Positions 5,233-39,630 of a stretch of DNA of 48,210 nt are shown piece after piece. Source of the stretch: Minisyncoccia bacterium (GTDB taxonomy: Bacteria > Patescibacteriota > Minisyncoccia > Phycocordibacterales > UBA9973); the NCBI GenBank assembly GCA_049287045.1, contig JBAQFC010000002.1, positions 1-48,210 of the forward strand. Reading direction: 5' to 3'. Position 1 is the stretch's first letter. Each line of letters opens with the position of its first letter. The translations under genes and the position numbers were made by a program. The notes under the pieces are model-generated. The model was given only the letters and a program-made list of their open reading frames with translations. It was not told the DNA's origin and made no database searches.

Positions 5233-7515
5233 TTAGCTAAATGCATTTAAAACGTTAGCCAAAAGGTTTTGCATTCCTTGCAAGAAACTACTTGGTGAAG
5301 AAGGCGGAGGTAAATTCTGCTGTTGAGGTGGAAGTTGTGGTTGCATTTGGTTTGGCTGGTTTGGCTGTCCACCTTGATTAAAACCCGGACCATTACCATT
5401 CACACCGGAACCGGGATTAAAACCTTGGCCTTGGTTGGGACCACCAGGACCATTACTTCCATTTTGGGGTTTTATATCATCAGGACCTATACCTAAACAA
5501 GTACCTGGACCTGTGCCACAAGGACCCGCAACACCGCTATCGGTATTTCCTTGTTCTAAATTATTAGGTTGACTAGGTTGCTGTTTAGGTAACATTTGTC
5601 CAGATTGTTTAGAACCATCTTGGTTAAGACCTGGTCCATTACCATTCACACCAGAGCCAGGATTAAAACCTTGGCCTTGGTTAGGACCGCCTTGCTGTTC
5701 TTGTTGCGGTTTAATATTTTTACATTCTTCTTGATTCGATTCGCAATAAGCCTTGCATTCTTCCGGCCCCTTACATCCACCAGGACCCGCCTGCTGTGGC
5801 ATCTGCTGACCGCTCGGATTTTTAGTCCCAGGTCCAGGTTGAAATTTATCTCCTGATTTACCTTGATTATTTTTATTAATCTGCTGATTTGGTTGACCCT
5901 GTTGATTTTGTCCCTGCTGATTCTGTTGGCCTTGTTTACCCTGCTGATTATTCTGCTGATAATTACCACACTTCGCAGTTGAACTTTCAGGGCAAACCGG
6001 TTTTCCGTCTGAACCTACTTTTGCTGATGCTACAAATTTTCCATCCCCGTCAACACAAGCCAACACCGTTGGATTTCCATTCTCGTCAGGTTGGCACATA
6101 TCTGCCCATGGTTGAATTTGCTGATTTGATTGACCTTGATTCATTTGTTGATTTTCTCCAGATTGATCTTGACCATCTTGGTTTTGATCTGGCTTTCTCT
6201 CTTGTATACCAGATTTTTGAAAACACTGATTAATAGAATCACCGTATTTTCTTCCTACCACAGATCCAGTTTTCATTTTTTCAACAACATCAGCACCAAC
6301 GGTAGAAGTTAGACAATCTAAAACTTCAGGTGGTATTGAAGAAAAGGAGTCTTTCATCTTCTGCTGGCCTTCCTGCATTTTTTGTAAATCTTCCTGAGGA
6401 ATCATTCCATTATCTTTAGCAAAATTAAAACAAGCGTCTTGGTTATCGGGATTACTACAAAAAGTATCACAGGCATCTTTACCAATACATCCGCCGGGTC
6501 CCTTGTTACCATTTTTTATAGAATTTTTTCCTTGCTCTTCAGTCATATTTCCAATTGCTACAGAAAATTTAACACATTCTTCAACGTGGCTGGAATCGGC
6601 ACAATACTGGTCACATGACTGCAAGCCCTGTACAGACTGGTCAGATTGTTTTGATTGACTGGATTGTTCGCTAGATTGATCGGGTGGATTAGGTCGGCAA
6701 GATGGAGGTTTAATTCCCTGTTTAAGAACTTTAATAGTTTTTTGTACTTGTTCTTTTTGATCATCCGGTACCATACCAGTCGCTAGAGAAAAAGTCATAC
6801 ATTCTTCTTGATGAGTCCCGCAATATTGATTACACATAGGCAAGCCACTACTAGATTGATTAGTTTGCTCAGATTGCCCAAGCTGATCAGACGGAGGATT
6901 TGGTTGACATGCTGGTGGTTTTACTCCTTGTTTCAAAGCTTCAAGAGTTTTCTGCATCTGTTCTTTCTGGTTATCCGGCACAATTCCTGCTGCTATAGAA
7001 AAAGTCATACATTCTTCCATATGTGATGGATTACTACAATATGCCTTACACTTCGCTCCAGTACAAGCAGGTGGTTTTAAACCACTCTTAATAGCTGTTA
7101 TAACTTTTTTAGAATCTTGCAATTGTTGATCAGACATCATTCCCTTTTTTTCAGCAAAAGCAGTACATTCTTCTAGATGATTTGAATCGCTGCAATATTG
7201 TTCGCACGCATCTTTTCCTTTGCAGCTACCTGGACCAACCATCCCGTTGTCTTTAAACTTTTTAGCATTAGATAATTCTTCAGTACTCATTAATTTACGC
7301 TGTTCAGCAAAACTCAAACAGGCGTCTATATTCTCCGACTTATCACAATAAGCCTTGCATGACGTCTTGTCTGCGCAGTTACCTAGCTCAACAACGGGAA
7401 AAGAAATTCCTGGAACAGCTTGATTATCTGTCTGAGCATGAGCAAAACTAATTATTCCACCAGAAATTAAAATCCCGGAAACTAAAATTAGAAAACTTAA
7501 AATATTTTTTTTCAT
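5233..7515 (-). CDS. secreted Cys-repeat protein with Q/N/G/P-rich low-complexity C-terminal half
   Basis: Signal peptide. About 7 copies of a module C-x2-[YF]-C-x5-8-C-x2-F (for example SCKAYCDKSENIDACLSF, ACEQYCSDSNHLEECTAF, KCKAYCSNPSHMEECMTF). Duplicated GPNQGQGFNPGSGVNGNGPG tracts. Confidence 0.75.
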   Translation of the reverse strand: MKKNILSFLILVSGILISGGIISFAHAQTDNQAVPGISFPVVELGNCADKTSCKAYCDKSENIDACLSFAEQRKLMSTEELSNAKKFKDNGMVGPGSCKGKDACEQYCSDSNHLEECTAFAEKKGMMSDQQLQDSKKVITAIKSGLKPPACTGAKCKAYCSNPSHMEECMTFSIAAGIVPDNQKEQMQKTLEALKQGVKPPACQPNPPSDQLGQSEQTNQSSSGLPMCNQYCGTHQEECMTFSLATGMVPDDQKEQVQKTIKVLKQGIKPPSCRPNPPDQSSEQSSQSKQSDQSVQGLQSCDQYCADSSHVEECVKFSVAIGNMTEEQGKNSIKNGNKGPGGCIGKDACDTFCSNPDNQDACFNFAKDNGMIPQEDLQKMQEGQQKMKDSFSSIPPEVLDCLTSTVGADVVEKMKTGSVVGRKYGDSINQCFQKSGIQERKPDQNQDGQDQSGENQQMNQGQSNQQIQPWADMCQPDENGNPTVLACVDGDGKFVASAKVGSDGKPVCPESSTAKCGNYQQNNQQGKQGQQNQQGQNQQGQPNQQINKNNQGKSGDKFQPGPGTKNPSGQQMPQQAGPGGCKGPEECKAYCESNQEECKNIKPQQEQQGGPNQGQGFNPGSGVNGNGPGLNQDGSKQSGQMLPKQQPSQPNNLEQGNTDSGVAGPCGTGPGTCLGIGPDDIKPQNGSNGPGGPNQGQGFNPGSGVNGNGPGFNQGGQPNQPNQMQPQLPPQQQNLPPPSSPSSFLQGMQNLLANVLNAFS

Positions 7516-7519
7516 ATAT

Positions 7520-7792
7520 TTATTGAAAAGGGTTAGTTTTTAAATTTGAAAATGGATTGGTTTTGTTATAAGGATTAGCATCCGTGTTTGGTAAACTAAC
7601 TGCAGGTATTGCTACATCTGGTGAAACATTATTTCCAACATTAGCTGAGATATCGTCCACTGTTTTTTGAACATCCTCCACTGCCTGTTGCGCAGCTGGT
7701 TTTTGCATTTTTATTTTCCAATAATAATATCCACCTATAATTAATATTAAAACAACAACCACCGAAACAATTATTAATAGTTTTTTATTCAT
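7520..7792 (-). CDS. small single-pass membrane protein
   Basis: N-terminal TM LLIIVSVVVVLILIIGGYYYW. The stop lies 5 nt upstream of the start of the 5233..7515 gene, which suggests an operon. Confidence 0.55.
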   Translation of the reverse strand: MNKKLLIIVSVVVVLILIIGGYYYWKIKMQKPAAQQAVEDVQKTVDDISANVGNNVSPDVAIPAVSLPNTDANPYNKTNPFSNLKTNPFQ

Positions 7793-8865: not shown

Positions 8866-9258
8866 TCGGGAGTAGCTCAGCGGTAGAGCGGTCGCCTGTG
8901 GAAATTTCCTCCCTTTGGTATAATATAATTATTATGTCAGATAATAGGAAATATGCTGATAAAGCATCACGCAGCTTTCTATTGAAAAATAGATCGAAAA
9001 TGGGGTGAATTCGGGGAAACCCAAACTTGTAATGAGTGGGTAATCCCGAGCCAAGCTCTGATGAAAATCAGAGAAGGTGTAGAGACTATCTCGCAAGAGA
9101 GTAGTGTTCCAATTATTTTGGAATCCGAAGCGCCTCACTTCTAAGTTTTGCAACATTATTTTTTGTTTGCAAAATATGGAGATGATATAGTCCGTACCAT
9201 TAGTAATAATGGAGAAAACGTAAGCGATTGGTCGTAGGTTCGATCCCTACCTCCCGAG
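8866..9258 (+). tRNA. tRNA-Asn(GUU) interrupted by a group I intron (exons 8866..8899 and 9221..9258)
   Basis: 5' exon: TCGGGAG TA GCTC AGCGGTA GAGC G GTCGC CTGT. 3' exon: TAA GCGAT TGGTC GTAGG TTCGATC CCTAC CTCCCGA G. The joined anticodon loop is CTGTTAA. U1-A72 and G73 as in E. coli tRNA-Asn. Confidence 0.85.
8900..9220 (+). ncRNA. group I intron, subgroup IC3-like, no ORF
   Basis: Core blocks are nearly identical to the Azoarcus tRNA-Ile and Anabaena tRNA-Leu introns as I recall them: GGGGTGAATTCGGGGAAACCCAAAC, AATCCCGAGCCAAGC, GAAGGTGTAGAGACTA, GATATAGTCCG. The 5' exon ends in U and the intron ends in G. A candidate IGS, GCAG, pairs with exon CUGU and gives a U.G wobble at the splice site. 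Confidence 0.85.
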
Positions 9259-9273
9259 CATTTAAAATCTTTA

Positions 9274-9300
9274 GCACCCTTTTGGGTGCTTTTGATTTTT
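9274..9300 (+). terminator. terminator after tRNA-Asn
   Basis: GCACCC-TTTT-GGGTGC followed by TTTTGATTTTT. Confidence 0.75.
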
Positions 9301-9302
9301 AT

Positions 9303-9439
9303 GCTCAGGAGAGAGAGCCAACTGCTTGGCTCTCGGGTAGGGAGCGAAAAGCTTTTCTGTGTTTTTAAAAATCATAGATTTTAAAAAACTAGAAAAGGTA
9401 TACTGCGGCTGTAAGCCGAGATCACCCTACCTCCCGAGC
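9303..9439 (+). repeat. tRNA-3'-end-mirroring structured element, Asn-type, copy 1
   Basis: 5' arm GCTCAGGAG + hairpin (9312-9334) + GGGTAGGGAGCGA is the reverse complement of the tRNA-Asn 3' end (TCGATCCCTAC|CTCCCGAGC). The 3' arm CCCTACCTCCCGAGC (9425-9439) is a direct copy of that 3' end. About 80% identical to 11054..11189, with compensatory changes in hairpins. Confidence 0.8.
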
Positions 9440-9443
9440 CAGC

Positions 9444-9476
9444 AAAAATCACTTTAGAAATAAGGTGATTTTTTGT
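9444..9476 (+). terminator. terminator-like hairpin closing element copy 1
   Basis: AAAAATCAC-loop-GTGATTTTTTG. Confidence 0.55.
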
Positions 9477-9498
9477 TACCTAAGTGGAAGTTCGAACC

Positions 9499-9650
9499 TT
9501 GACGAGTTAACAAATCTTTGGTAAGGTAACGGCAGTAATCAGTTGTTTGAAAATATTGGTTTTAATGTTTATTTAGTGAATTACCTTGGTCTTCTATATG
9601 GAGATTGAAGTAGTTCATTAAATTACTAACAATTTTAAATCATTAAAAAA
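9499..9650 (+). promoter_or_regulatory. promoter plus conserved 5' leader of about 125 nt, module copy 1
   Basis: TTGACG (9499-9504), 17-nt spacer, TAAGGT (9522-9527). About 70% identical over about 150 nt to 12895..13050, including a conserved stem-loop with loop CTTCTATAYGGAGA. Confidence 0.65.
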
Positions 9651-10325
9651 ATGAAAACATTAGAATTTAAAATTCTTTCCGATGAGGTACTCTCGTTTGA
9701 AAATTTCATTGACGTCATGTTAAATCAGGCATCTTTTCCAAATACTCTAGGCGACCTCCACAAATGGATAAAGGGTGAATATTGCAAGAGTGGCAGGCAT
9801 TATCATAATTTTGAGCATATAGGAGATTGTCTTATAAATCTTTCTATGTTTAGAGATTCCGTTGATCATGGAATTTATGGGAATAGCCAAGCTATTTTTA
9901 CTGCTATATATTTCCACGATATTGTTTACTTTCCAGGAAGAAATAATAATGAAGAATTATCTGCTACTGTTGCCGAATCAGCCCTTATATCACTAGGATG
10001 CAAAAAGGATTTTATCGAGCTGGTAAAAAAACTTATTATGGCAACCAAGCATAATCAAGTTTTAGAAACAGACGAGGAAAAACTTATTGCCGACATTGAC
10101 CTTTTAGGATTCGCTCTGCCTTGGGAAAAATATTTGGAGATGACAACAAAAATTTATGAAGAGTTCGGTGCTCTATATACTAAGAGTGAATTTATAAATA
10201 GACGCAAGGGCTTCCTAAGGAAAAACTTCTTTTCGAAAGATAGGATTTACTACACACCTTATTTTTATGAAAACTGCGAAAAATCCGCAAGAGATAATTT
10301 CCAAAGATTTTTAGCTCTGGAATAA
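9651..10325 (+). CDS. HD-superfamily phosphohydrolase-like protein
   Basis: RHYHNFEHIGDCL ... FHDIVYFPG motif pair, typical of the COG4339-type HD family. Confidence 0.65.
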   Translation: MKTLEFKILSDEVLSFENFIDVMLNQASFPNTLGDLHKWIKGEYCKSGRHYHNFEHIGDCLINLSMFRDSVDHGIYGNSQAIFTAIYFHDIVYFPGRNNNEELSATVAESALISLGCKKDFIELVKKLIMATKHNQVLETDEEKLIADIDLLGFALPWEKYLEMTTKIYEEFGALYTKSEFINRRKGFLRKNFFSKDRIYYTPYFYENCEKSARDNFQRFLALE

Positions 10326-10350
10326 TACTGTTTTTGTAATAAAATTATAA

Positions 10351-10384
10351 GGCTGTTCACGTAAGTGTTCAGCCTTTTATTATT
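10351..10384 (+). terminator. terminator of the 9651..10325 gene
   Basis: GGCTGTTCAC-GTAA-GTGTTCAGCC followed by TTTTATTATTT. Confidence 0.7.
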
Positions 10385-10388
10385 TCTA

Positions 10389-10415
10389 TTCGAATGTCAT
10401 CCCAAGTTCGGAGCA
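10389..10415 (+). repeat. hairpin motif copy A (TTCGAATGTCATCCCAAGTTCGGAGCA)
   Basis: Member of a motif with 4 direct copies plus 1 inverted copy. Stem TTCGAA/GTTCGGA around a conserved loop, followed by a terminator-like hairpin ACCAT..ATGGTGTTTTT (10425-10448). Confidence 0.7.
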
Positions 10416-10453
10416 AAATTTATAACCATATTTATCAATGGTGTTTTTGCCTA

Positions 10454-10475
10454 CCAACTTGGGACGTTCGAACTT
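10454..10475 (-). repeat. hairpin motif, inverted copy
   Basis: Minus strand reads AAGTTCGAACGTCCCAAGTTGG. It forms an inverted pair with copy A across about 38 nt. Confidence 0.55.
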
Positions 10476-10502
10476 AGATTATTTTTATGTTATAACTTAT
10501 AC

Positions 10503-10952
10503 ATGGAAGGAATAAACAAAAAGTCAGAACTACACAACTCTCTTCAAAGAAAAGTAGAACTTGCGTCAAAATATAATAAGGGCGACGAGTTACCTGTAGA
10601 TTTTAAAAAAATAGAAGGTGCTGTGGGTATGTTTGATATCTTGTTAGAGGGTGAAAAAGTAGGTACTTTTGAAATAGCAGATACAAATCCTGAGGAAGAA
10701 AACTTGAGCGTAAAAACCAAACAGTTAGGTTTTATCAGGATTGATGATTTGTTTTTAAATAAAGGATTAGGTAAACAATTTTATATCGTTTTAAATAATT
10801 ATTTGAAAAATACAGAAGATTCTGTACTTGAGTCATCAGGAGAACATATTACTCCTCAAGCTAAGCGAGTGTGGGCTTCCTTGCTAAAGGATGGGTTGGT
10901 TTATAAAGAAGGAACTAGATCAAACGGCGAAGATTTTTATAGATTTAAATAA
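10503..10952 (+). CDS. hypothetical protein (149 aa), possibly acetyltransferase-like
   Basis: ATG at 10503 (MEGINKK...). The longer track ORF from 10365 would run through the terminator and repeat motifs. The segment FIRIDDLFLNKGLGKQFY is only weakly GNAT-like. Confidence 0.5.
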   Translation: MEGINKKSELHNSLQRKVELASKYNKGDELPVDFKKIEGAVGMFDILLEGEKVGTFEIADTNPEEENLSVKTKQLGFIRIDDLFLNKGLGKQFYIVLNNYLKNTEDSVLESSGEHITPQAKRVWASLLKDGLVYKEGTRSNGEDFYRFK

Positions 10953-10983
10953 TGTTTAAATCTGCTTTCTATCAATGATGACT

Positions 10984-11011
10984 CTCCGAACATCATCCCA
11001 AGTTCGGAGCA
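10984..11011 (+). repeat. hairpin motif copy B (CTCCGAACATCATCCCAAGTTCGGAGCA)
   Basis: 8-bp stem CTCCGAAC/GTTCGGAG with loop ATCATCCCAA. It occupies the position that the tRNA-Asn 3' end occupies next to copy 1. Confidence 0.7.
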
Positions 11012-11024
11012 TTAAAAAATCTTA

Positions 11025-11050
11025 GCACCCTTTTGGGTGCTTTTGATTTT
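11025..11050 (+). terminator. terminator hairpin identical to the one after tRNA-Asn
   Basis: GCACCC-TTTT-GGGTGC followed by TTTTGATTTTT. Confidence 0.7.
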
Positions 11051-11053
11051 TAT

Positions 11054-11189
11054 GCTCGGGAGACAAAGCAAACTTCTTTGCTTTGGTGTAGGGAGCGAAA
11101 AGCTTTTCTGTGTTTTTGGAAATCTTTGATTTACAAAAACGAGAAAAGGTATACTGTTCCTGTAAGGAAAGATACCCTACCTACCGAGC
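11054..11189 (+). repeat. tRNA-3'-end-mirroring structured element, Asn-type, copy 2 (no adjacent tRNA)
   Basis: GCTCGGGAG + hairpin CAAAGCAAA-CTTC-TTTGCTTTG + GTGTAGGGAGCGA ... GTATACTG TTCCT-GTA-AGGAA ... CCCTACCTACCGAGC (11175-11189). Confidence 0.8.
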
Positions 11190-11425
11190 CAGATGCGTCA
11201 AAATAAAATTTGACTAGTGTATGTACTATGATATGCTATAAGCATCACTATGAAAGAGACCCTTATGCAGATTCGTCTGCATCGGGGGCTTTTTCTTTTT
11301 AGGGCTTACTTGAGAACTTATGATAATGTTCGTTTAAGAAAGTTATTTCTATATTTTTATTTCTTAATAAAATTGAACATTTGTTTTTATCTGGAGCAAT
11401 AATGCAATGAATTGACTTGTTCCCT

Positions 11426-11446
11426 CATTGTCCCAAGTTCGGAGCA
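11426..11446 (+). repeat. hairpin motif copy C (3' half: CATTGTCCCAAGTTCGGAGCA)
   Basis: Shares CCCAAGTTCGGAGCATTA with copy B and TTACAAAGAC with copy D. Followed by hairpin ACATTGA-CAGG-TCAATGT (11455-11472). Confidence 0.55.
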
Positions 11447-12894: not shown

Positions 12895-13050
12895 TTGACG
12901 AGTCAACAAATCTTTGGTAATGTAGTGGCAAGATTTAGTTATTTGAAATACAGATTTTGTTGTTATTGATTTAGTTGCTTTGAGCTTCTATACGGAGACT
13001 AAAGTGACTAAATCAATAAATTAATTTCACAATTTAAAACCACAACGAAA
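12895..13050 (+). promoter_or_regulatory. promoter plus conserved 5' leader, module copy 2
   Basis: TTGACG (12895-12900), 17-nt spacer, TAATGT (12918-12923). Stem TTGATTTAGT/ACTAAATCAA encloses CTTCTATACGGAGA. Homologous to 9499..9650. Confidence 0.65.
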
Positions 13051-13527
13051 ATGAAAAAATATCATTTCAAACATCACTTCCGTGATGAAGAAACTGCTGG
13101 GGCATTTAGATCTTTTGCAAAGCAGCTCCTAAAAATAAGAAAGCAAATACAACACTATCGAAAGGACAAATTAAAGAGAAAAGAGATCTTTAATTTAGCT
13201 TGCTCTCATAAAGAATTAGGAAATTTATTTGAGAGAAAACTCAACGATGATTCTATAAATATAGCAAAAGAGTTGAGTCCTGTTTTTACATCAGAGTTTA
13301 ATGGTGTAATTGTTAAGGTTGTTAAATCATCAACATTAAAATCGATTGAAAGGCAATACATAAGAATTGTAAACGAAAGAACATTCCTTGATAAGGATAG
13401 TCAGGAACCTACCAAATTTAACAAAAAAGAAAATAACACGAGACCGTTGAAAGACGTATTAATTTTCCCAGTTAGAACTATGGAAGATATTCTTAAAAAG
13501 AAAAAAAGAAGATACCCAAAAAGATAG
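13051..13527 (+). CDS. hypothetical basic protein (158 aa)
   Basis: Clean ORF behind the module-2 leader. Lys/Arg-rich, no family recognised. Confidence 0.55.
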   Translation: MKKYHFKHHFRDEETAGAFRSFAKQLLKIRKQIQHYRKDKLKRKEIFNLACSHKELGNLFERKLNDDSINIAKELSPVFTSEFNGVIVKVVKSSTLKSIERQYIRIVNERTFLDKDSQEPTKFNKKENNTRPLKDVLIFPVRTMEDILKKKKRRYPKR

Positions 13528-13582: not shown

Positions 13583-13603
13583 ATTTCCCATCCAAAATAC
13601 TCA

Positions 13604-13629
13604 TTCGAACATCATCCCAAGTTCGGAGA
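13604..13629 (+). repeat. hairpin motif copy D (TTCGAACATCATCCCAAGTTCGGAGA)
   Basis: Same stem and loop as copy B. Followed by TTACAAAG and the terminator hairpin at 13643-13666. Confidence 0.7.
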
Positions 13630-13642
13630 AAATTTACAAAGA

Positions 13643-13830: not shown

Positions 13831-13837
13831 TGTGTCT

Positions 13838-14212
13838 AATGTCTTGCATCTGTAAGCCGAATTCTGTATTCCAGCCGAAGCTGAAACGATAGTCATTTGT
13901 CTAGGCCTGACATTACTATCAGGCTCAAGCGATTCTCCCCGACCGAAGCCAGAGCACGATCTTGCATAGAGGTAAGGATTTAGCCGTTTCATATTCTATA
14001 TTACTATAGAACTCATCCTATGATTACTCATAGGATGATCTTTCCCTTTCGAGAAAAATCGTCTCTGTTCGCACCTATATATTGCTATATGCGGGCGTTA
14101 CCCGCTACCATTCCCTTCCCGAAGGATTCGCTATGTTCGGACTTTCCTCCCTTCAGCTTCGCTCAGGGCAAGCCCCTAACAAAACCAAAGAGTAACTACC
14201 CAACGCAGGACA
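13838..14212 (-). ncRNA. rnpB: RNase P RNA, bacterial type A
   Basis: Minus strand contains GGGAGGAAAGTCCGAAC (P4 5' strand), GGTAACGCC, and ACAGAATTCGGCTTAC (P4 3' strand). P1 pairing is GTCCTGCGTTGG with CAGATGCAAGAC. End coordinates are good to within about 5 nt. Confidence 0.9.
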
Positions 14213-14295: not shown

Positions 14296-17200
14296 TTATT
14301 CAATAAAAACTTTTTTGGTAAGAATTGAATTCGAAGAAATAATCTTCACAAGATACAAACCTTGTGGCAAATCATTTTTCAAAATCTGAAAACTATTTCC
14401 TTCTTCCTTTATACTGCGAACAATCTGACCCAGATTATTTACAACATTTATTTCATATTTTCCATATGGTAATTCTACATGCAAAACATCCATAAAAGGA
14501 TTGGGAAACAACTTCACATCTTCATCCTTAATAGCCTCATTAACCCCAACGAAAGACTTTTCAAAAAAACATCCATCGGTACTGTACTGGAAATACATAG
14601 CATCCACATCACTTACCTCTACATTGTTAAACACAGCCGAAGTTGTGTTTTGCATTGAAGGAGTATAGACATGAGTCGTAGATCCAGAAGTTTTTAGTTT
14701 AAGACTACTACCAAAAATTCCTTGCACTCCTACTGTTTTTGTCGTTCCGGAACCAGTCACTGTAACGTTGTTTACAACAGGTACAGAGTCTACTCTAACA
14801 GACATTGATGCCGACTTTGGACAGCCATTACCATCAAGATAAGTGTAAGTTAAAGTATTAGTTCCAGCATTTGCGGTTGCCGCATTGAAGTTATTTCCTA
14901 CAAATGAAATTCCATTCGCAGAAAAAGTTCCAGGTGACGGGCTTCCAGTAAAAGTGATCGTATGATTCGTGGCCTCTTTACAAATTTCAACAATACCTAA
15001 ATTTGAAGTAATAGATACGCTCGCATTATTTGTTACTGGTGTAACGGTAACACTTGCAGTATTTATACAACCATTGATATCCGTGCCGGTAACTGTTTCT
15101 GTTAAAGAAGTATTACCAGTCGGAGTTACAACAATCGGAGATCCAGTTTGACCTCCAGTCCATGAATAAGTATTAGCTCCACTTGCAGACAAGGTTGCCG
15201 ATGTACCACTACAAACCGTAGCGTTACCAGACGTAGTAATCACAGGTAAAGGGTTCACCGTTACGATTACACTTGCTGTATCAACACAACCATTAATATC
15301 GGTAGCAGTTACAGTATAAGTTTTTGTAGTTATTGGGTTGGCAATAATGCTTCCCAAAGTAGTACTACTTAAACTTGTTGAGGGAGACCATGTGTAGGAA
15401 GAACCACCTGCACCCGTTAGGGTCGTTGATCCTCCTTTACAAAATGAACTACCTGCTACTGCAGACACTACCGGCAAAGGATTTACTGACAAAATAGTTA
15501 TAACCGTATCTTTACATCCGTTGATATCCGACACTACTGCTGAATAAATTGTAGTGACAGTTGGATTGGCATTTACGCTAAATCCAGTCGCACTACTCAG
15601 GCCAGTAACTGGAAACCAAGAGCATGAAATACCACCGATCGCTGTAAAAGTTTTTGAACCTCCAATACAAACTGAAGAATTCGCTGATACAGTACCTATT
15701 GGTGATGGATGAACAGTTATAACAACAACGTTTGAATTACTTACGCAACCATTAATATCGGTTCCAACCGCGGTATAAGAAATAGTATTGGCTGGATTAA
15801 TATTAATGGGAGATCCGATTTGACCTCCAGTCCAAGAATAAACATTTGCTCCACTTCCAGTTAAAGTAGTTGAAGTTCCAGCACAGATCGTGCCAACACT
15901 TGCAACGGCAGTAACTATCGGCAAAGCATTAACTTTAACTTTTGTAATAGCCGTATCTTTGCACCCATTCGGGTCCGTTAAAACTGCAGAATAAATTGTA
16001 GTAATAATTGGATTAGCATTTACGCTAAACCCAGAAGTACTACTCAAACCCGCAGAAGGATACCAGAAACATGAAGTTCCACCAGAGGCAACTAAACTTT
16101 TTGTTGACCCTATACAAATAGAGTCATTTGGAGTTACTGTTGCAACTGGTAATGGATTTACGGTAATAACAACACTTGCAGTGTTAACACAAGTATTCGC
16201 GTCTGTTCCCGTTACTATATAAGTAGTGGTACTAGGAGGGCTCGTATTGAATGAAGATCCAGTTTGACCTGTACTCCAAGTATACGTACTTGCCCCGCCA
16301 GCAGTTAAGGTAGATGTAGCTCCAGCACATATTGTACTAGGACTTGCAAGTACAGTGACTGAAGGTAGAGGGTTAACAGTAACTAAAATATTATTACCAC
16401 TTACACAGCCATTTATATCAGTTCCAACTACACCATAAGAAGTGGTATTAATAGGAGTTATACTGAATGAAGCTGTTGTCTGACCTCCTCCCCAAGAATA
16501 AGTACTTGCTCCACCAGCAGTTAAAGTAGTTGCAGTACCGTTACAAATTGTATTGGCACTTGCGGTTACAGTAATTAAAGGTGTGGGATTAACCGTAACA
16601 GTAACACTTGCATTATTTGTACAATTATTAGCATTTGTTCCAACCACGCTATAAGTAGTGGTTGTATTTGGAACAACAAAATATGAAAATCCAGTTTGAC
16701 CTGAATTCCATATATACGTACTTGCTCCACCAGCAGTTAAAGTAGTTGAAGTGCCATTACAAACGATAAGAGCACTTGCGGTTACAGTAACTATTGGCAA
16801 CGGATTAACCGTAATCGTAACACTTGCAGTGTTAACACAAGTATTCGCATCTGTTCCCGTTACTATATAAGTAGTGGTACTAGGAGGACTCGTATTGAAT
16901 GAAGATCCAGTTTGACCTGTACTCCAAGTATACGTACTTGCCCCGCCAGCAGTTAAGGTAGATGTAGATCCAGCACAGATTGTGTTCGGACTTGCAACTG
17001 CGGTGACTGAAGGTAGAGGGTTAACGACAATTGTAAAGTTAGTATTCTTTGCACAACCAAAGACGTCTGTTCCTGTTACATTGTAAGCAACAGTACTAAC
17101 CGGAGTTACATTTATTGAAGTTAAGGTTTCACCCCCGCCCCAAAGATAAGTATTTGCTCCAGTGACATTTAAAGTGGTTGTAGCACCAACACAGATTGTA

Positions 17201-18291
17201 TTGGCACTTGCAGTTACAAGAACTGTAGGCACAGGATACACCGCAATATTAATAGTGTTTGTGTCTTTACACCCATTAACATCTGTTGCGATCACAGTAT
17301 AAGTAGAAGCACCACTAATAGGACTTGCAGTTACATTTGATCCTGTCGTACTACTCAAAGTACTACCCGGAGACCATAAATAAGAAGTTCCACCAGTGGC
17401 AATTAAAGGACTTGAACCACCAGCACAAACTAAATTGCTTTGTGTGAGGGTTCCGATTGGTAATGAATTAACGGTTACTGTTGTTATGTTTGTGTCTTTA
17501 CATCCGTTCGCGTCAGTTTCAATCACTGTGTAAGTTGTTGTACTAAGAGGGTTCGCATTTACGCTTGCCAAAGTAGTACTATTCAAACCAGTTGAAGGAG
17601 ACCATGCAAATAAAGTACCACCAGTCGCTGTTAAGCTTTTTAATCCTCCAAAACAAATTGAAGAATTAGCTGTCACAGTTCCAATTGGTAATGCATTTAC
17701 AGTTAAAACGAATGCGGATGCACTTTCAGTACATCCAATAATTGTTACATCAACAGTATAACTTCCGGAAGTATTTGCTACATAAGTCGAAGCGGTTGCC
17801 CCGGCAATGATTACATTATTTCTTTTCCATTGATAAGTAGCTCCTAAAGTAGAAGCAGTCAATGTGTCCAAAATTCCTGCACAAATACTATCATTTGTAG
17901 ATGATGAGATAACGGGAGTAGGAAAACATGATGGAGTTGTAAAAGTTCCCACCGCACTACTTCCAGATGCAGCTCCAGGCAAAACTTTTGCTTTGTAACT
18001 GTAAGTGGTAGAAGGTGTTAATCCTGTCAAAGTAATTGCAATAGTCGTGTCAGCAACGGGATTCATTAAAGTTGCTACTGAACAATTCGAATTGAAATTA
18101 CCTCCTGTACCGTGACAAAACTGACGAAAGCCAACAGCTATTAAAGCATTGTAATGGCACCAGGCTATGGCGCTGGTTGGCGTGACGTTCGTGACTGAAT
18201 CTACTTTTACATAATTCAGATTCACATTTTGGGCATTTACTGCCCCGAAAGCAATAACAATTGCAATCATAATTAGGATGATTTTTTTCAT
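14296..18291 (-). CDS. giant surface adhesin-like protein: about 14 Ig-like Cys-bracketed repeats plus T9SS-type (Por_Secre_tail) C-terminal domain
   Basis: Signal peptide. Repeats follow the pattern C.G....LTA.G...Y.W.......V.P..TT.Y.V.GTD.NGC......V.VNPLP. C-terminus is LFPNPFMDVLHVELPYGKYEINVVNNLGQIVRSIKEEGNSFQILKNDLPQGLYLVKIISSNSILTKKVFIE. Confidence 0.85.
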   Translation of the reverse strand: MKKIILIMIAIVIAFGAVNAQNVNLNYVKVDSVTNVTPTSAIAWCHYNALIAVGFRQFCHGTGGNFNSNCSVATLMNPVADTTIAITLTGLTPSTTYSYKAKVLPGAASGSSAVGTFTTPSCFPTPVISSSTNDSICAGILDTLTASTLGATYQWKRNNVIIAGATASTYVANTSGSYTVDVTIIGCTESASAFVLTVNALPIGTVTANSSICFGGLKSLTATGGTLFAWSPSTGLNSTTLASVNANPLSTTTYTVIETDANGCKDTNITTVTVNSLPIGTLTQSNLVCAGGSSPLIATGGTSYLWSPGSTLSSTTGSNVTASPISGASTYTVIATDVNGCKDTNTINIAVYPVPTVLVTASANTICVGATTTLNVTGANTYLWGGGETLTSINVTPVSTVAYNVTGTDVFGCAKNTNFTIVVNPLPSVTAVASPNTICAGSTSTLTAGGASTYTWSTGQTGSSFNTSPPSTTTYIVTGTDANTCVNTASVTITVNPLPIVTVTASALIVCNGTSTTLTAGGASTYIWNSGQTGFSYFVVPNTTTTYSVVGTNANNCTNNASVTVTVNPTPLITVTASANTICNGTATTLTAGGASTYSWGGGQTTASFSITPINTTSYGVVGTDINGCVSGNNILVTVNPLPSVTVLASPSTICAGATSTLTAGGASTYTWSTGQTGSSFNTSPPSTTTYIVTGTDANTCVNTASVVITVNPLPVATVTPNDSICIGSTKSLVASGGTSCFWYPSAGLSSTSGFSVNANPIITTIYSAVLTDPNGCKDTAITKVKVNALPIVTAVASVGTICAGTSTTLTGSGANVYSWTGGQIGSPININPANTISYTAVGTDINGCVSNSNVVVITVHPSPIGTVSANSSVCIGGSKTFTAIGGISCSWFPVTGLSSATGFSVNANPTVTTIYSAVVSDINGCKDTVITILSVNPLPVVSAVAGSSFCKGGSTTLTGAGGSSYTWSPSTSLSSTTLGSIIANPITTKTYTVTATDINGCVDTASVIVTVNPLPVITTSGNATVCSGTSATLSASGANTYSWTGGQTGSPIVVTPTGNTSLTETVTGTDINGCINTASVTVTPVTNNASVSITSNLGIVEICKEATNHTITFTGSPSPGTFSANGISFVGNNFNAATANAGTNTLTYTYLDGNGCPKSASMSVRVDSVPVVNNVTVTGSGTTKTVGVQGIFGSSLKLKTSGSTTHVYTPSMQNTTSAVFNNVEVSDVDAMYFQYSTDGCFFEKSFVGVNEAIKDEDVKLFPNPFMDVLHVELPYGKYEINVVNNLGQIVRSIKEEGNSFQILKNDLPQGLYLVKIISSNSILTKKVFIE

Positions 18292-20522: not shown

Positions 20523-21899
20523 CTATTGCATTACTAATTTCTTTGTTATAGAAGAATTTGTTTTTTCAGAAGATATTTTTGCAAAATATACTCCTGAAGG
20601 TAAACCATCTCTTTCTATTTTAAAGTTATTTCCTTCTTCAGTTGTGATACTGCGAACTGTTTGTCCTAAACAATTTACAATGTCAATTTGATATTTTCCA
20701 TTTGGAGTTTCCAAATTTAACATATCCACAACAGGATTAGGGAACATCCTTATATCTCCATCCTTTACAACTTCACCAACACCTACAAAACTCTGTTCAA
20801 TAAAACATTCTGAGTTGTATTTTAAGTACATAACCTCAGTGCCGTTATACGATACATTGTTGAATATCGCCAATGAAGAGTTTTGCATCGAAGCAACATA
20901 TGTATGGGTTGTTGACCCTACAATCTCCATTTGCAATGGACCAACAAGTGGACCATAAACTTTTACTGTTTTTGTCGCTCCAGAGCCGGTAACTATTACA
21001 CTGTTTACTTCTGGTAATGAGTCAACTTGGATATTAACCATTGTTGAATCTTTGCAACCAAAATTGTCAGTACATGTATAGGTTACGACACTCGTCCCAG
21101 CATTTAAAGTAGACACGTTTACGGAATTACCAATAAAGATTATTCCGTTGCATGAAAGTACTCCGCCAGATGGAACCAAAGTGAAAGCTATTGTTGGAGT
21201 CATAGACACCTTACAAGCTTCAGCAGTACCAGACGTTGGTACAGCAGATACTGGTGTAGTGTTTGTTTTCACAGTAATAGCAACAGTTGTTGTCGTTGTG
21301 CAAGTTCCACTCACAGTTACAGTATAAGTTGTTGAAACAGTAGGACTTGCAACAGGATTCCCGATATTTGGATTACTTAATCCAGTTGTCGGCAACCAAG
21401 CATATGAAGTTCCACCAGTAGCACTCAACGTTGTTGAGCTTCCAAAACAAATTGTAGCTGAAGCATTTGAAACAGCAGCACCACAAGTAGTAAATACTAA
21501 GGGTGAACCATCTTTAAACCAAACAGGACTTCCGCCCTGATAAAGAATAATGTGTGGTACCACTTTGTAGATATGACCTGCAGTTAACCCAGTTAATAAA
21601 TAGGCAACGCCTAAATTAACGGAGTCTCCAGCAACCCCGGTATAGTTCACATATTGGCTTCCCAATATGATATTACCGTTTGTTGAATCAATTTTTTCAA
21701 AAAATAATTCAACATGGTTGTTTGTATTCCAAAGGGTTATTCCACCCACTGATTGGATAGTCCAACCAAAAGAAATACTGGCTTGCGTCTGTGTCACACT
21801 AACAAATGAAGACGAAACGTTTCCACTGAAAGTACTTGCGAAAATTGAGCTCAATCCAATTACATTGGAGAGCAACAAAATTAGGAATGATTTTTTCAT
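20523..21899 (-). CDS. surface adhesin-like protein with T9SS-type C-terminal domain; paralog of the C-terminal about 250 aa of 14296..18291
   Basis: Signal peptide, one Cys-bracketed Ig-like repeat. C-terminus is MFPNPVVDMLNLETPNGKYQIDIVNCLGQTVRSITTEEGNNFKIERDGLPSGVYFAKISSEKTNSSITKKLVMQ. Confidence 0.85.
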   Translation of the reverse strand: MKKSFLILLLSNVIGLSSIFASTFSGNVSSSFVSVTQTQASISFGWTIQSVGGITLWNTNNHVELFFEKIDSTNGNIILGSQYVNYTGVAGDSVNLGVAYLLTGLTAGHIYKVVPHIILYQGGSPVWFKDGSPLVFTTCGAAVSNASATICFGSSTTLSATGGTSYAWLPTTGLSNPNIGNPVASPTVSTTYTVTVSGTCTTTTTVAITVKTNTTPVSAVPTSGTAEACKVSMTPTIAFTLVPSGGVLSCNGIIFIGNSVNVSTLNAGTSVVTYTCTDNFGCKDSTMVNIQVDSLPEVNSVIVTGSGATKTVKVYGPLVGPLQMEIVGSTTHTYVASMQNSSLAIFNNVSYNGTEVMYLKYNSECFIEQSFVGVGEVVKDGDIRMFPNPVVDMLNLETPNGKYQIDIVNCLGQTVRSITTEEGNNFKIERDGLPSGVYFAKISSEKTNSSITKKLVMQ

Positions 21900-39253: not shown

Positions 39254-39264
39254 ATTAAAAATAA

Positions 39265-39520
39265 TTGATGGGGCTTTCCTTACAGGAACAGTATACAATC
39301 GTGCGGCTGATGGGCTTGGTCACAAATATTTCCTCGCCGTCGCTCAGAAATTTCGCGACCCCATAAAAATAAAACTGCTTTGATTTTTATCTGATACGAA
39401 GTAATTGTCTGTATTTTGCTTGCAAAATAGACAATAGGGGCGAACTTGTCTACTGACAAAACATCGTTCCGTCCGTCAGCACCCAACGAAATGTCTCACA
39501 GACATTTCTTCAACCGCGCA
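39265..39520 (-). repeat. tRNA-3'-end-mirroring structured element, Asp-type
   Basis: Minus strand: GCGCGGTTG + hairpin (AAGAAATGTCT-GTG-AGACATTTCGTT) + GGGTGCTGAC. This is the reverse complement of the tRNA-Asp 3' end GTCAGCACCCAT|CAGCCGCGC. A direct copy GCCCATCAGCCGCAC lies at 39315-39301. GTATACTG TTCCT-GTA-AGGAA (39298-39276) is identical to Asn-type copy 2. Confidence 0.75.
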
Positions 39521-39554: not shown

Positions 39555-39558
39555 GATG

Positions 39559-39630
39559 CGCGGCTGATGGGTGCTGACCCCACGGCCTCCCACGTGACAG
39601 GCGGGTGCTCTACCGTTGAGCTACAGCCGC
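39559..39630 (-). tRNA. tRNA-Asp(GUC) with a non-canonical T-loop
   Basis: GCGGCTG TA GCTC AACGGTA GAGC A CCCGC CTGTCAC GTGGG AGGCC GTGGG GTCAGCA CCCAT CAGCCGC G. The T-loop is GTCAGCA where TTCRANN is expected. No encoded CCA. Confidence 0.8.

Follow-up and report, generated by a model that had tools for sequence, protein, structure and literature searches.

A small structured element bounded by copies of a tRNA 3' end in a Minisyncoccia genome: a possible non-autonomous insertion element of tRNA genes

In CTXphi, two inverted copies of the target fold into a duplex replica of it, and after integration an intact inverted copy remains beside one hybrid junction. This phage, the attC sites of integrons and the hairpin elements of the IS200/IS605 and REP type are among the described systems closest to the element considered here, a non-coding unit of ~180 bp located immediately after the tRNA-Asn gene in the genome of a Minisyncoccia bacterium (assembly GCA_049287045.1). 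The stretch analysed, referred to below as the window, comprises 48,210 nucleotides of contig JBAQFC010000002.1, and the element occupies its positions 9260-9439 on the plus strand. In agreement with a preliminary description made from the letters of this DNA, no known RNA or mobile-element family fits the element: Rfam 15 leaves it unmatched at gathering thresholds and at E ≤ 10 (the best hits, with 13-21 bits where the cut-offs are 36-115, are at chance level), no similarity to phages or plasmids was found, and a literature search found nothing comparable. We tentatively read it as a small non-autonomous insertion element, specific for the 3' boundary of tRNA genes, in which a folded single strand would rebuild a duplex copy of the target, although our confidence in this reading is rather less than even.

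The host gene, tRNA-Asn(GUU), was read from the sequence at 8866-9259 on the plus strand, with exon 1 at 8866-8899, a group I intron at 8900-9220 and exon 2 at 9221-9258, closing with ...TCGATCCCTACCTCCCGAG(C) at 9258/9259, where the discriminator G is position 9258. Its last ~21 nt (about 9239-9259), designated copy A, are the target reproduced by the arms of the element. The unit, all on the plus strand, opens at 9260-9302 with a spacer and an intrinsic terminator, T1, located by a terminator scan (stem-loop 9273-9290, T-run to ~9300). This is followed by arm B, GCTCAGGAG (9303-9311, from sequence reading and folding), the reverse complement of the tRNA acceptor 3' strand, the discriminator and one further base, with 1 mismatch; by hairpin hp1, GAGAGCCAA-CTGC-TTGGCTCTC (9313-9334), with a 9-bp stem and a CUGC loop, situated exactly opposite the T-stem/acceptor junction of the tRNA; and by arm B', GGGTAGGGAGCGA (9335-9347), the reverse complement of the T-stem 3' strand and T-loop, which in other copies is GTAGGGATCGAA, an exact complement. 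Read as one reverse complement, B and B' correspond to TCGATCCCTAC|CTCCCGAGC except for 2 mismatches and for 1-2 additional G at the junction. The hairpin core continues with P4 (9352-9397), long, AU-rich, of the 'short' interior variant and flanked by the conserved junctions GAGCGAAAAG and GGTATACTG, and, at 9398-9424, with the motif GTATACTG, which shows no variation in the element alignments, hairpin P5 (CGGCT-GUA-AGCCG) with its invariant GUA triloop, and the linker AGATCA. Arm C, CCCTACCTCCCGAGC (9425-9439), an exact 15-nt repeat of 9245-9259, closes the unit and forms the right boundary of the indel. At ≤3 mismatches this 15-mer occurs three times in the window (9245 and 9425, both exact, and 11175 with 1 mismatch), against 0.18 expected. 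Thus, both the inverted tRNA-end copy split by a hairpin and the closing direct repeat, already recognised in the preliminary description, are present.

The order A-T1-B...C recalls the topology of CTXphi attP(+) and other Xer-exploiting elements, since two inverted target copies able to fold into a duplex site are present. However, the target is here a tRNA 3' end and not dif, neither an Xer-type site nor phage genes accompany it, the unit measures only about 180 nt, hp1 branches from the stem, and the structure of the core is conserved. With integron attC sites the element shares a structure that is kept while the sequence is not, strand-specific imperfect palindromes at cassette boundaries, and a single orientation in an array of small open reading frames (ORFs) beside a fixed primary site. 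It differs from them in the lack of R/L boxes (RYYYAAC...GTTRRRY), the arms GCTCAGGAG...CTCCCGAGC having no GTTRRRY core at the boundaries, in the absence of intI and attI from the window, in arms that copy the tRNA end, and in neighbouring ORFs that have their own promoters. IS200/IS605, PATEs and the REP/BIME/REPIN-RAYT group are, like the element, non-coding hairpin elements inserted immediately 3' of a specific sequence. Moreover, arm B, 5' of the hp1 foot, is complementary to the cleavage-site region in the manner of the IS608 guide, the target copies alternate between direct and inverted with conserved motifs between them as in BIMEs, and RAYT-like genes and a REP-like short repeat (SR) are found in these related genomes. 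Nevertheless, complementarity extends over about 21 nt, where IS608 has 4 nt, the element is flanked by a 15-19-nt direct repeat, copies are very few, the window contains no Y1 gene, and, where that group has similar subterminal hairpins at both ends and no target duplication, the left and right hairpins differ here (T1, hp1 and P5 are unlike each other).

Homologs of the element, anticipated in the preliminary description, were searched for in several collections. An exact-pattern scan of metagenomes for the conserved core gave two true homologs (L001 and L002, in the numbering used for loci below) and one chance hit; the exact-pattern core scan of GTDB genomes gave no match, and two such scans of IMG/VR gave nothing or chance matches in coding DNA only. 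GTDB genomes were also scanned with the tRNA-Asn 3' half, which is identical in 120 other Paceibacteria tRNA-Asn genes, resulting in 120 loci, which belong without exception to metagenome-assembled genomes of Paceibacteria, Nomurabacteria, Zambryskibacteria and related Patescibacteria; copies were found with an nhmmer profile and a covariance model, R1, built in this analysis. In total there are about 25 copies in about 20 other genomes, at four kinds of site. The element directly follows tRNA-Asn in 17 loci, ~15% of the ~105 with enough downstream sequence, independently of the presence of an intron in that gene. Other copies follow tRNA-Ala (L025, L051, L107, L081, L035), stand in tandem (L075, L116), or occupy secondary sites 1-2 kb downstream (copy 2 of the window, L001, L039b, L110, L085). 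A further site is an odd tRNA-like gene in L116 (7400-7700; ...GGTTCGAATCCTCTCGTTGGCAC, no clear D arm), followed by tandem variant copies (at 7536) without T1 and without the acceptor part of arm B. Two interior architectures, short and long, exist, and each occurs with Asn arms and with Ala arms. A one-off local duplication and inversion, which the preliminary description had named as the simpler explanation should its tests fail, or else a mere chance similarity, has nothing beyond parsimony for a single locus to recommend it; it is refuted by the homologous copies, shuffled controls gave no matches, and we regard it as barely credible.

Two further copies lie in the window itself. Copy 2 (11011-11189, plus strand) has T1 at 11024-11041, B, GCTCGGGAG, at 11054-11062, hp1 at ~11064-11085, B' at ~11086-11098 and C, CCCTACCTACCGAGC, at 11175-11189. 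It stands directly after an SR ending ...GTTCGGAGC, and its arms still match tRNA-Asn. Compared over 11007-11192, it is 84% identical to copy 1 and carries compensatory changes in hp1, P4 and P5, so the earlier observation that the hairpins are kept despite sequence turnover holds. The third copy, of Asp type, was recognised by the covariance model (22.8 bits), sequence reading and folding. It lies on the minus strand (about 39262-39520), where it follows tRNA-Asp (39558-39630, likewise on the minus strand) and the terminator of that gene. It has B, CGCGGTTGA, hp1, GAAATGTCTGTGAGACATTTC, and a B', GTTGGGTGCTGAC, that represents the T-loop and T-stem of tRNA-Asp in reverse complement; the interior is far longer, and its C, CCCATCAGCCGC, is followed by GTATACTG and TTCCTGTAAGGAA, an extra motif and P5 hairpin thus standing after its direct repeat.

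Across these copies the arms are modular. In most of them, C and the reverse complement of B differ from the local tRNA by 0-1 mismatch, and this is so across seven tRNA-Asn acceptor variants (TCCCGAGC, CCCGGAGC, CTCGGAGC, CACGGAGC, GCCGGAGC, TCCGGAGC and CGCGGAGC); against the local tRNA 8-mer, the reverse complement of B has at most 1 mismatch in most copies. Ala-type and Asp-type arms mirror tRNA-Ala and tRNA-Asp, T-loops included, and the same core therefore carries arms for Asn, Ala and Asp, at least three tRNA types. The question put in the preliminary description, whether the arms track the adjacent tRNA, is in this way answered in favour for the seven acceptor variants, for Ala, for Asp and for one more tRNA-like gene. 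As a refinement, the secondary-site copies, copy 2 of the window included, have arms that match the tRNA-Asn of the genome and not the adjacent sequence. Arm B also mirrors 2-9 nt of the 3' flank (e.g., GAGCAT, GAGCTC, GAGCCAA), and, taking into account that this flank is not CCA, B reflects the gene and not the CCA-tailed mature tRNA. In the Ala type, B has an A opposite U70, where the 5' strand of the tRNA has G3; arm B is thus strictly complementary, in the Watson-Crick sense, to the 3' strand and does not reproduce the 5' strand. The B arms of L075 and L002 differ at one base from the tRNA and from C alike, which would be expected of an arm carried by the element. No split inverted copy of a tRNA end appeared in shuffled downstream sequence in a scan of about 100 tRNAs.

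The boundary of the element always falls after ...GAGC (Asn type) or ...CCAC (Ala type), and the secondary-site copies of the window, L001 and L039b begin at the ...GAGC| boundary after SR. In the element-less locus L091, which has an identical acceptor sequence, tRNA..GAGC is directly followed by T2, the second terminator that follows arm C in the window (93% identity over 9425-9481), and in L021, L012 and L128 the same sequence likewise stands directly after the tRNA with nothing between. Therefore, T2 (9446-9476, plus strand, within the flank 9440-9480), a bidirectional terminator that the preliminary description had assigned to the element, is instead the native terminator of tRNA-Asn and lies outside the unit, and the indel extends from T1 through C (9260-9439), flanked by a direct repeat. 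The closest relatives by intron similarity, L074 (93%) and L113 (85%), do not have the element. T1 resembles native tRNA-Asn terminators, and a canonical terminator precedes the element in nearly all copies. The element is thus a discrete unit, present or absent as a whole, that occurs in tandem and secondary copies, with modular arms and covarying helices.

The evidence for these helices comes from several calculations. Compared with shuffles, the fold reaches z = -5.7 in copy 1 and z = -4.4 in copy 2. On a MAFFT alignment of 13 copies that was not fitted to the structure, RNAalifold found hp1, P3, P4 and P5, and 20 of the 28 pairs carry compensatory changes. Among 21 model-aligned copies, 91.3% of helix cells pair against 68.6% when shuffled (0 of 500 shuffles were as good), with double changes in 36 of 43 pairs and with partner-slid controls pairing at 40-54%; it has to be noted that this alignment was fitted to the model and that these pairing figures therefore lean towards the structure. 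By helix, the paired cells amount to 98.9% in hp1, 98.8% in P5, 90% in P4, 84.6% in P1 and 85.5% in P3, and covarying pairs to 9 of 9 in hp1, 5 of 5 in P5 and 13 of 14 in P4; the T1 stem also covaries between loci. The selection on structure deduced in the preliminary description is in this way borne out, on the unfitted alignment as well. P1 (B:C) and P3 (B':C) share the continuous strand CCCTACCTCCCGAGC with hp1 at their junction, an arrangement equivalent to the stacking of an acceptor on a T-stem with a continuous 3' strand. The tRNA end, T1 and B/B', taken as one long DNA hairpin, reach -55.6 kcal/mol (z = -10.7), and the tRNA end together with arm B forms a long imperfect palindrome centred on the T1 loop, which in L039 is perfect over 26 bp. 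In the RNA fold, the A:B and B:C pairings are nearly isoenergetic, and A:B and B':C compete. The folded strand that matters may be either RNA or single-stranded DNA.

On the reading that we prefer, that of an insertion element, the acting form would be the tRNA-sense strand, folded while single-stranded and, in the simplest case, DNA. It is proposed that the inverted arm pairs with the direct copy C, or with the tRNA end across T1, which would produce a duplex replica of the insertion site from which hp1 branches at the T-stem/acceptor junction. This hairpin might present a recombination or cleavage site to an enzyme supplied in trans, following the logic of CTXphi attP(+), integron attC and IS200/IS605/REP ends. 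Cuts after ...GAGC at both copies, followed by rejoining, would result in a precise excision, leaving the tRNA-T2 'empty site' of the kind observed in element-less relatives; after excision such a site would read ...GGTTCGATCCCTACCTCCCGAGCCAGCAAAAATCAC... (GGTTCGATCCCTACCTCCCGAGC|CAGCAAAAATCAC), and the junction of a circle or tandem would read ...AAGCCGAGATCACCCTACCTCCCGAGCATTTAAAATC... (AAGCCGAGATCACCCTACCTCCCGAGC|ATTTAAAATCTTTAGC). The pairing of arm B with a tRNA end could then direct re-insertion, which T1 would render harmless by keeping the tRNA properly terminated. What we infer here is that the acting strand is single-stranded DNA, that it leaves and enters at ...GAGC|, and that an enzyme acts on it. 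For this reading speak, besides the precise ends of the indel, its patchy occurrence and the secondary, tandem and differently armed copies, the strict complementarity of arm B and its one-base differences in L075 and L002, the lack of an evident promoter between the two terminators, the strand preference and the G.U-free hp1 described below, the long DNA hairpin, the RAYT-like genes mentioned next and the heterogeneous accessory genes downstream. As candidate enzymes, RAYT-like Y1 (HUH) transposases, encoded at three related loci, or a tyrosine recombinase may be considered. The RAYT-like Y1 genes (Y1_Tnp / REP_Tyr_transpos-like) are those of L001, 150 nt from an SR with the element, of L039 (1900-2660), flanked on both sides by the hairpin CTCCGCTAGGAC-TGTC-CTAGCGGAG, and of L067 (4050-4830), with an inverted hairpin pair, TTGCGTTAGGTC/GACCTAACGCAA, on its flanks and an SR-like sequence ~30 nt upstream.

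Several observations weigh against this proposal. Pfam revealed no recombinase or transposase among 29 ORFs of the 48-kb window, no recombinase was found among 20 proteins downstream of the element in other loci, and the association with RAYT-like Y1 genes is limited to three loci, all three proteins scoring below the NCBIfam cut-off. No circular or excised form was observed in exact-protein look-ups and short Logan contigs from one sample. The L009 Logan contig (SRR28062869; equal to window 9277-11037) was considered as a circle and rejected, as it begins and ends inside two T1 copies and represents an assembly break at a repeat. The proposal also requires that both arms become rewritten for a new tRNA. 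Between the window and L034/L014 the element has diverged to about the same degree (71-77%) as RNase P RNA (74-77%), which is compatible with old vertical inheritance and loss. Finally, some features of the core are RNA-like: a G.U pair is conserved at one position of P4, the unpaired junctions GAGCGAAAAG and GGTATACTG and the GUA triloop are nearly invariant, and the degenerate copy of L107 lies in a tRNA-tRNA spacer without a terminator and must therefore be transcribed.

A bolder version of the insertion hypothesis, which we consider improbable, is a nucleic-acid-guided system, in which antisense and sense arms of ~21 nt, split by a hairpin, would specify the target through pairing both with single-stranded DNA of a tRNA gene and with the end of the element itself, and a HUH/Y1 or other recombinase acting in trans would cut after the paired segment. 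Arms exchangeable on a constant core would explain the occurrence of Asn, Ala, Asp and other types on one scaffold and, if this were true, the element would be a mobile element that occurs in nature, is programmed by a guide and can be retargeted, at a size far below that of any known one.

The RNA-like features point to the main rival explanation, namely a structured RNA that mimics the tRNA end and is able to sequester it, to which we give somewhat less weight than to the insertion element. A read-through transcript would fold B/B' with C into an acceptor/T-stem-like coaxial stack whose 5' strand is interrupted where that of the tRNA is, and RNase P, RNase Z or the CCA-adding enzyme could find in such an RNA a tRNA-like substrate or a decoy. 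Another possibility is a riboswitch-like P1 switch, controlled by the core, whose antisense arm either stays with the decoy C or invades the 3' end of the neighbouring tRNA; the near equality of A:B and B:C in the RNA fold fits this. The multi-stem junction with invariant unpaired GAGCGAAAAG, GGUAUACUG and GUA triloop between heavily covarying stems, the position of hp1 at the equivalent of the tRNA 7/49 junction in every arm type, the conserved G.U pair of P4, the L107 copy and a divergence near that of RNase P RNA all speak for an RNA, as does the preference for the tRNA-sense strand, seen in an overall G.U:A.C ratio of 37:10 and in the greater stability of the plus strand in 16 of 20 copies. 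However, nearly all copies have a terminator ahead of them, and no evident promoter lies between T1 and T2; about 85% of related genomes lack the element, which behaves as a precise indel and a duplicating unit; the Ala-type arm without G3.U70 and the mirroring of a non-CCA flank indicate that mature tRNA is not copied; the 185 cells of hp1, 183 of them Watson-Crick, contain no G.U; and no Rfam model matches down to E = 10.

Also in favour of an RNA is a related element, U, a structured stretch of ~150 nt in the transcribed leader upstream of tRNA-Asn, which starts as a copy of tRNA-Asn nt 1-22 and, in some copies, ends with the complement of the tRNA-Asn 5' end. U carries two CUGUAAG hairpins and the GGTATACAG motif, which the element at the tRNA 3' end has as well, and its GGUAUAC motif and GUA hairpin have the same orientation as there. 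Copies of U were found in L045 (~6430-6590, minus strand), L097 (5508-5662, plus), L079 (~6010-6160, minus), L116 (1245-1395, plus), L021 and L103, and U has no Rfam match at gathering thresholds or at E ≤ 10.

If the element is compared with known tRNA-like structures (viral ones, mascRNA, the YrlA module) and with the external guide sequences of RNase P, the likeness resides in acceptor- and T-stem-like helices stacked on a continuous 3' strand, with the 5' strand interrupted at the equivalent junction, and in the ...GAGCCA end of some copies. In contrast, the element has no T-loop, D arm or anticodon arm and is not recognised by tRNA models (neither ARAGORN nor Rfam, the latter down to E ≤ 10, reports a tRNA at 9260-9445 or 11011-11192), and its helix is the complement of the gene 3' strand plus flank.

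The direct repeat of the tRNA 3' end is also the classical signature of an att site, and the element could accordingly be viewed as debris of integrase traffic at a tRNA hot spot: the attL/attR of a CIME-like, integrase-less remnant, the inverted copy being a leftover inverted partial tRNA and the hairpins being terminators, or quasi-palindromes that template-switch mutation, and not function, keeps perfect. Like tRNA islands and CIMEs, the element sits at a tRNA 3' end with the direct repeat of this end at both boundaries, shows tandem accretion, and keeps the tRNA intact and terminated. The small ORFs delimited by SR and the accessory genes downstream of tRNA-Asn agree with such an origin, as do the similarity of T1 to native tRNA-Asn terminators, the likeness of parts of the core to pieces of tRNA-Asn (GGTATACTG to the D-loop, GGTAGAGCG, and the CUGUAAG loop to the anticodon loop, CUGUUAA) and the uncorrected drift of the arms by single mismatches. 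Nevertheless, we hold this origin to be improbable, since no integrase was found nearby or in any of about 20 loci, neither a tyrosine or serine integrase nor a cognate island having appeared in the window or among 20 downstream proteins of other loci, the unit has 180 bp and not kilobases, and it differs from this class in its internal inverted target copy and its covarying hairpins. Moreover, the five-helix architecture persists though the sequence is almost entirely replaced (hp1 and P5 are 99% paired, all their pairs covarying across clades), the same core bears arms for three or more tRNAs, and the junction sequences are conserved. What remains of our expectation, once all these explanations have been weighed, falls to mechanisms beyond those listed.

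Some other candidates were considered and rejected. A primer-binding site for mature tRNA does not agree with the non-CCA flank bases mirrored by arm B, and a tRNA 5'-strand copy or aminoacylatable mimic does not agree with the A opposite U70 in the Ala type. A miniature group I intron, or a ribozyme for repair by trans-splicing, would need a larger core, and no model matches: RF00028 finds only the true intron, at 8910-9213, and leaves the element unmatched at E ≤ 10. A decoy of the anticodon-loop type for TGT or colicin E5 was discarded, given that the bases flanking GUA covary as pairs and GUA is therefore a triloop. An outward promoter (TATACT) lacks a conserved -35 and its transcription start would fall inside the covarying P5, a telomere-resolution palindrome would need a palindromic centre, which is not present, and an IS110 bridge RNA is contradicted by arms fully complementary to each other and by the lack of a DEDD transposase.

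With respect to the host gene, its intron (~321 nt, in the anticodon loop; Rfam RF00028, 68.6 bits) splits the gene, and for this reason ARAGORN misses it. Of the 120 related tRNA-Asn genes, roughly 40% appear to have an intron at the equivalent position, and these are missed by ARAGORN too.

The repeat that precedes copy 2, SR, CTCCGAAC-ATCATCCCAA-GTTCGGAGC (..TTCGAAC-ATCATCCCAA-GTTCGGAGC; 10975-11011, plus strand), occupies the place that the tRNA 3' end has for copy 1, and replaces the tRNA end ahead of the same kind of terminator. Other SR copies lie on the plus strand at 10379-10415, 11410-11446 (partial) and 13594-13630, and an inverted partial copy at about 10445-10473 results in a REPIN-like doublet. 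SR is a widespread, non-coding, REP-like intergenic repeat (49 nhmmer hits across related loci), mostly co-oriented with tRNA-Asn; in many cases a TATAAT-like box lies ahead of it and a terminator after it. In the window it delimits arrays of small ORFs downstream of tRNA-Asn; those lying between the copies have no Pfam domains, and in other loci the genes downstream of the element are heterogeneous accessory genes. In many element-less loci (L042, L087, L107), a conserved gene of ~570 aa converges on tRNA-Asn from the opposite strand about 90 nt downstream; it encodes ...AKQKNPKFEP... near the C-terminus, and the corresponding DNA, TCCCAAGTTCGAACC, resembles SR.

Other features of the surroundings can be mentioned. 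Between copy 2 and the next SR, the stretch 11227-11403 (~165 nt) is 79-86% conserved in L012, L020, L045 and L048, and could be a 50-aa ORF (11250-11402) or an RNA. The regions 9499-9671 and 12895-13071, which include the promoters and 5' regions of the ORFs 9651-10325 and 13051-13527, are 72-83% similar while the proteins look unrelated, a likeness that suggests a shared regulatory or cassette-head module. A class A RNase P RNA (13837-14204, minus strand), whose 102.9 bits slightly exceed the cut-off, bounds the variable region at a distance of 4.4 kb from tRNA-Asn on the downstream side. Beyond it, large repetitive surface proteins are encoded on the minus strand at 14296-18291 and 20523-21899, with 216-nt tandem coding repeats, Ig-like domains and Por_Secre_tail domains (C-terminal sorting of the type IX secretion system type), the last being unexpected in a Patescibacteria-like genome.

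The covariance model and the about 25 sequences make the nature of the element directly testable. If it proves mobile, it would rank with the smallest known site-specific elements and be a new case of a folded single strand that replaces a duplex recombination site, and its copy-specific, target-matching arms on a constant scaffold would point to programmable targeting. If it is an RNA, it would represent a new class that mimics the end of a neighbouring tRNA and is able to pair with it, a possible new layer of tRNA control or processing in candidate-phyla bacteria, whose RNA biology is poorly known. On either reading, the tRNA-Asn gene of Paceibacteria is a structured hot spot, in which a group I intron comes together with a tRNA-like element in the upstream leader, a repeat of REP type and arrays of small accessory genes.

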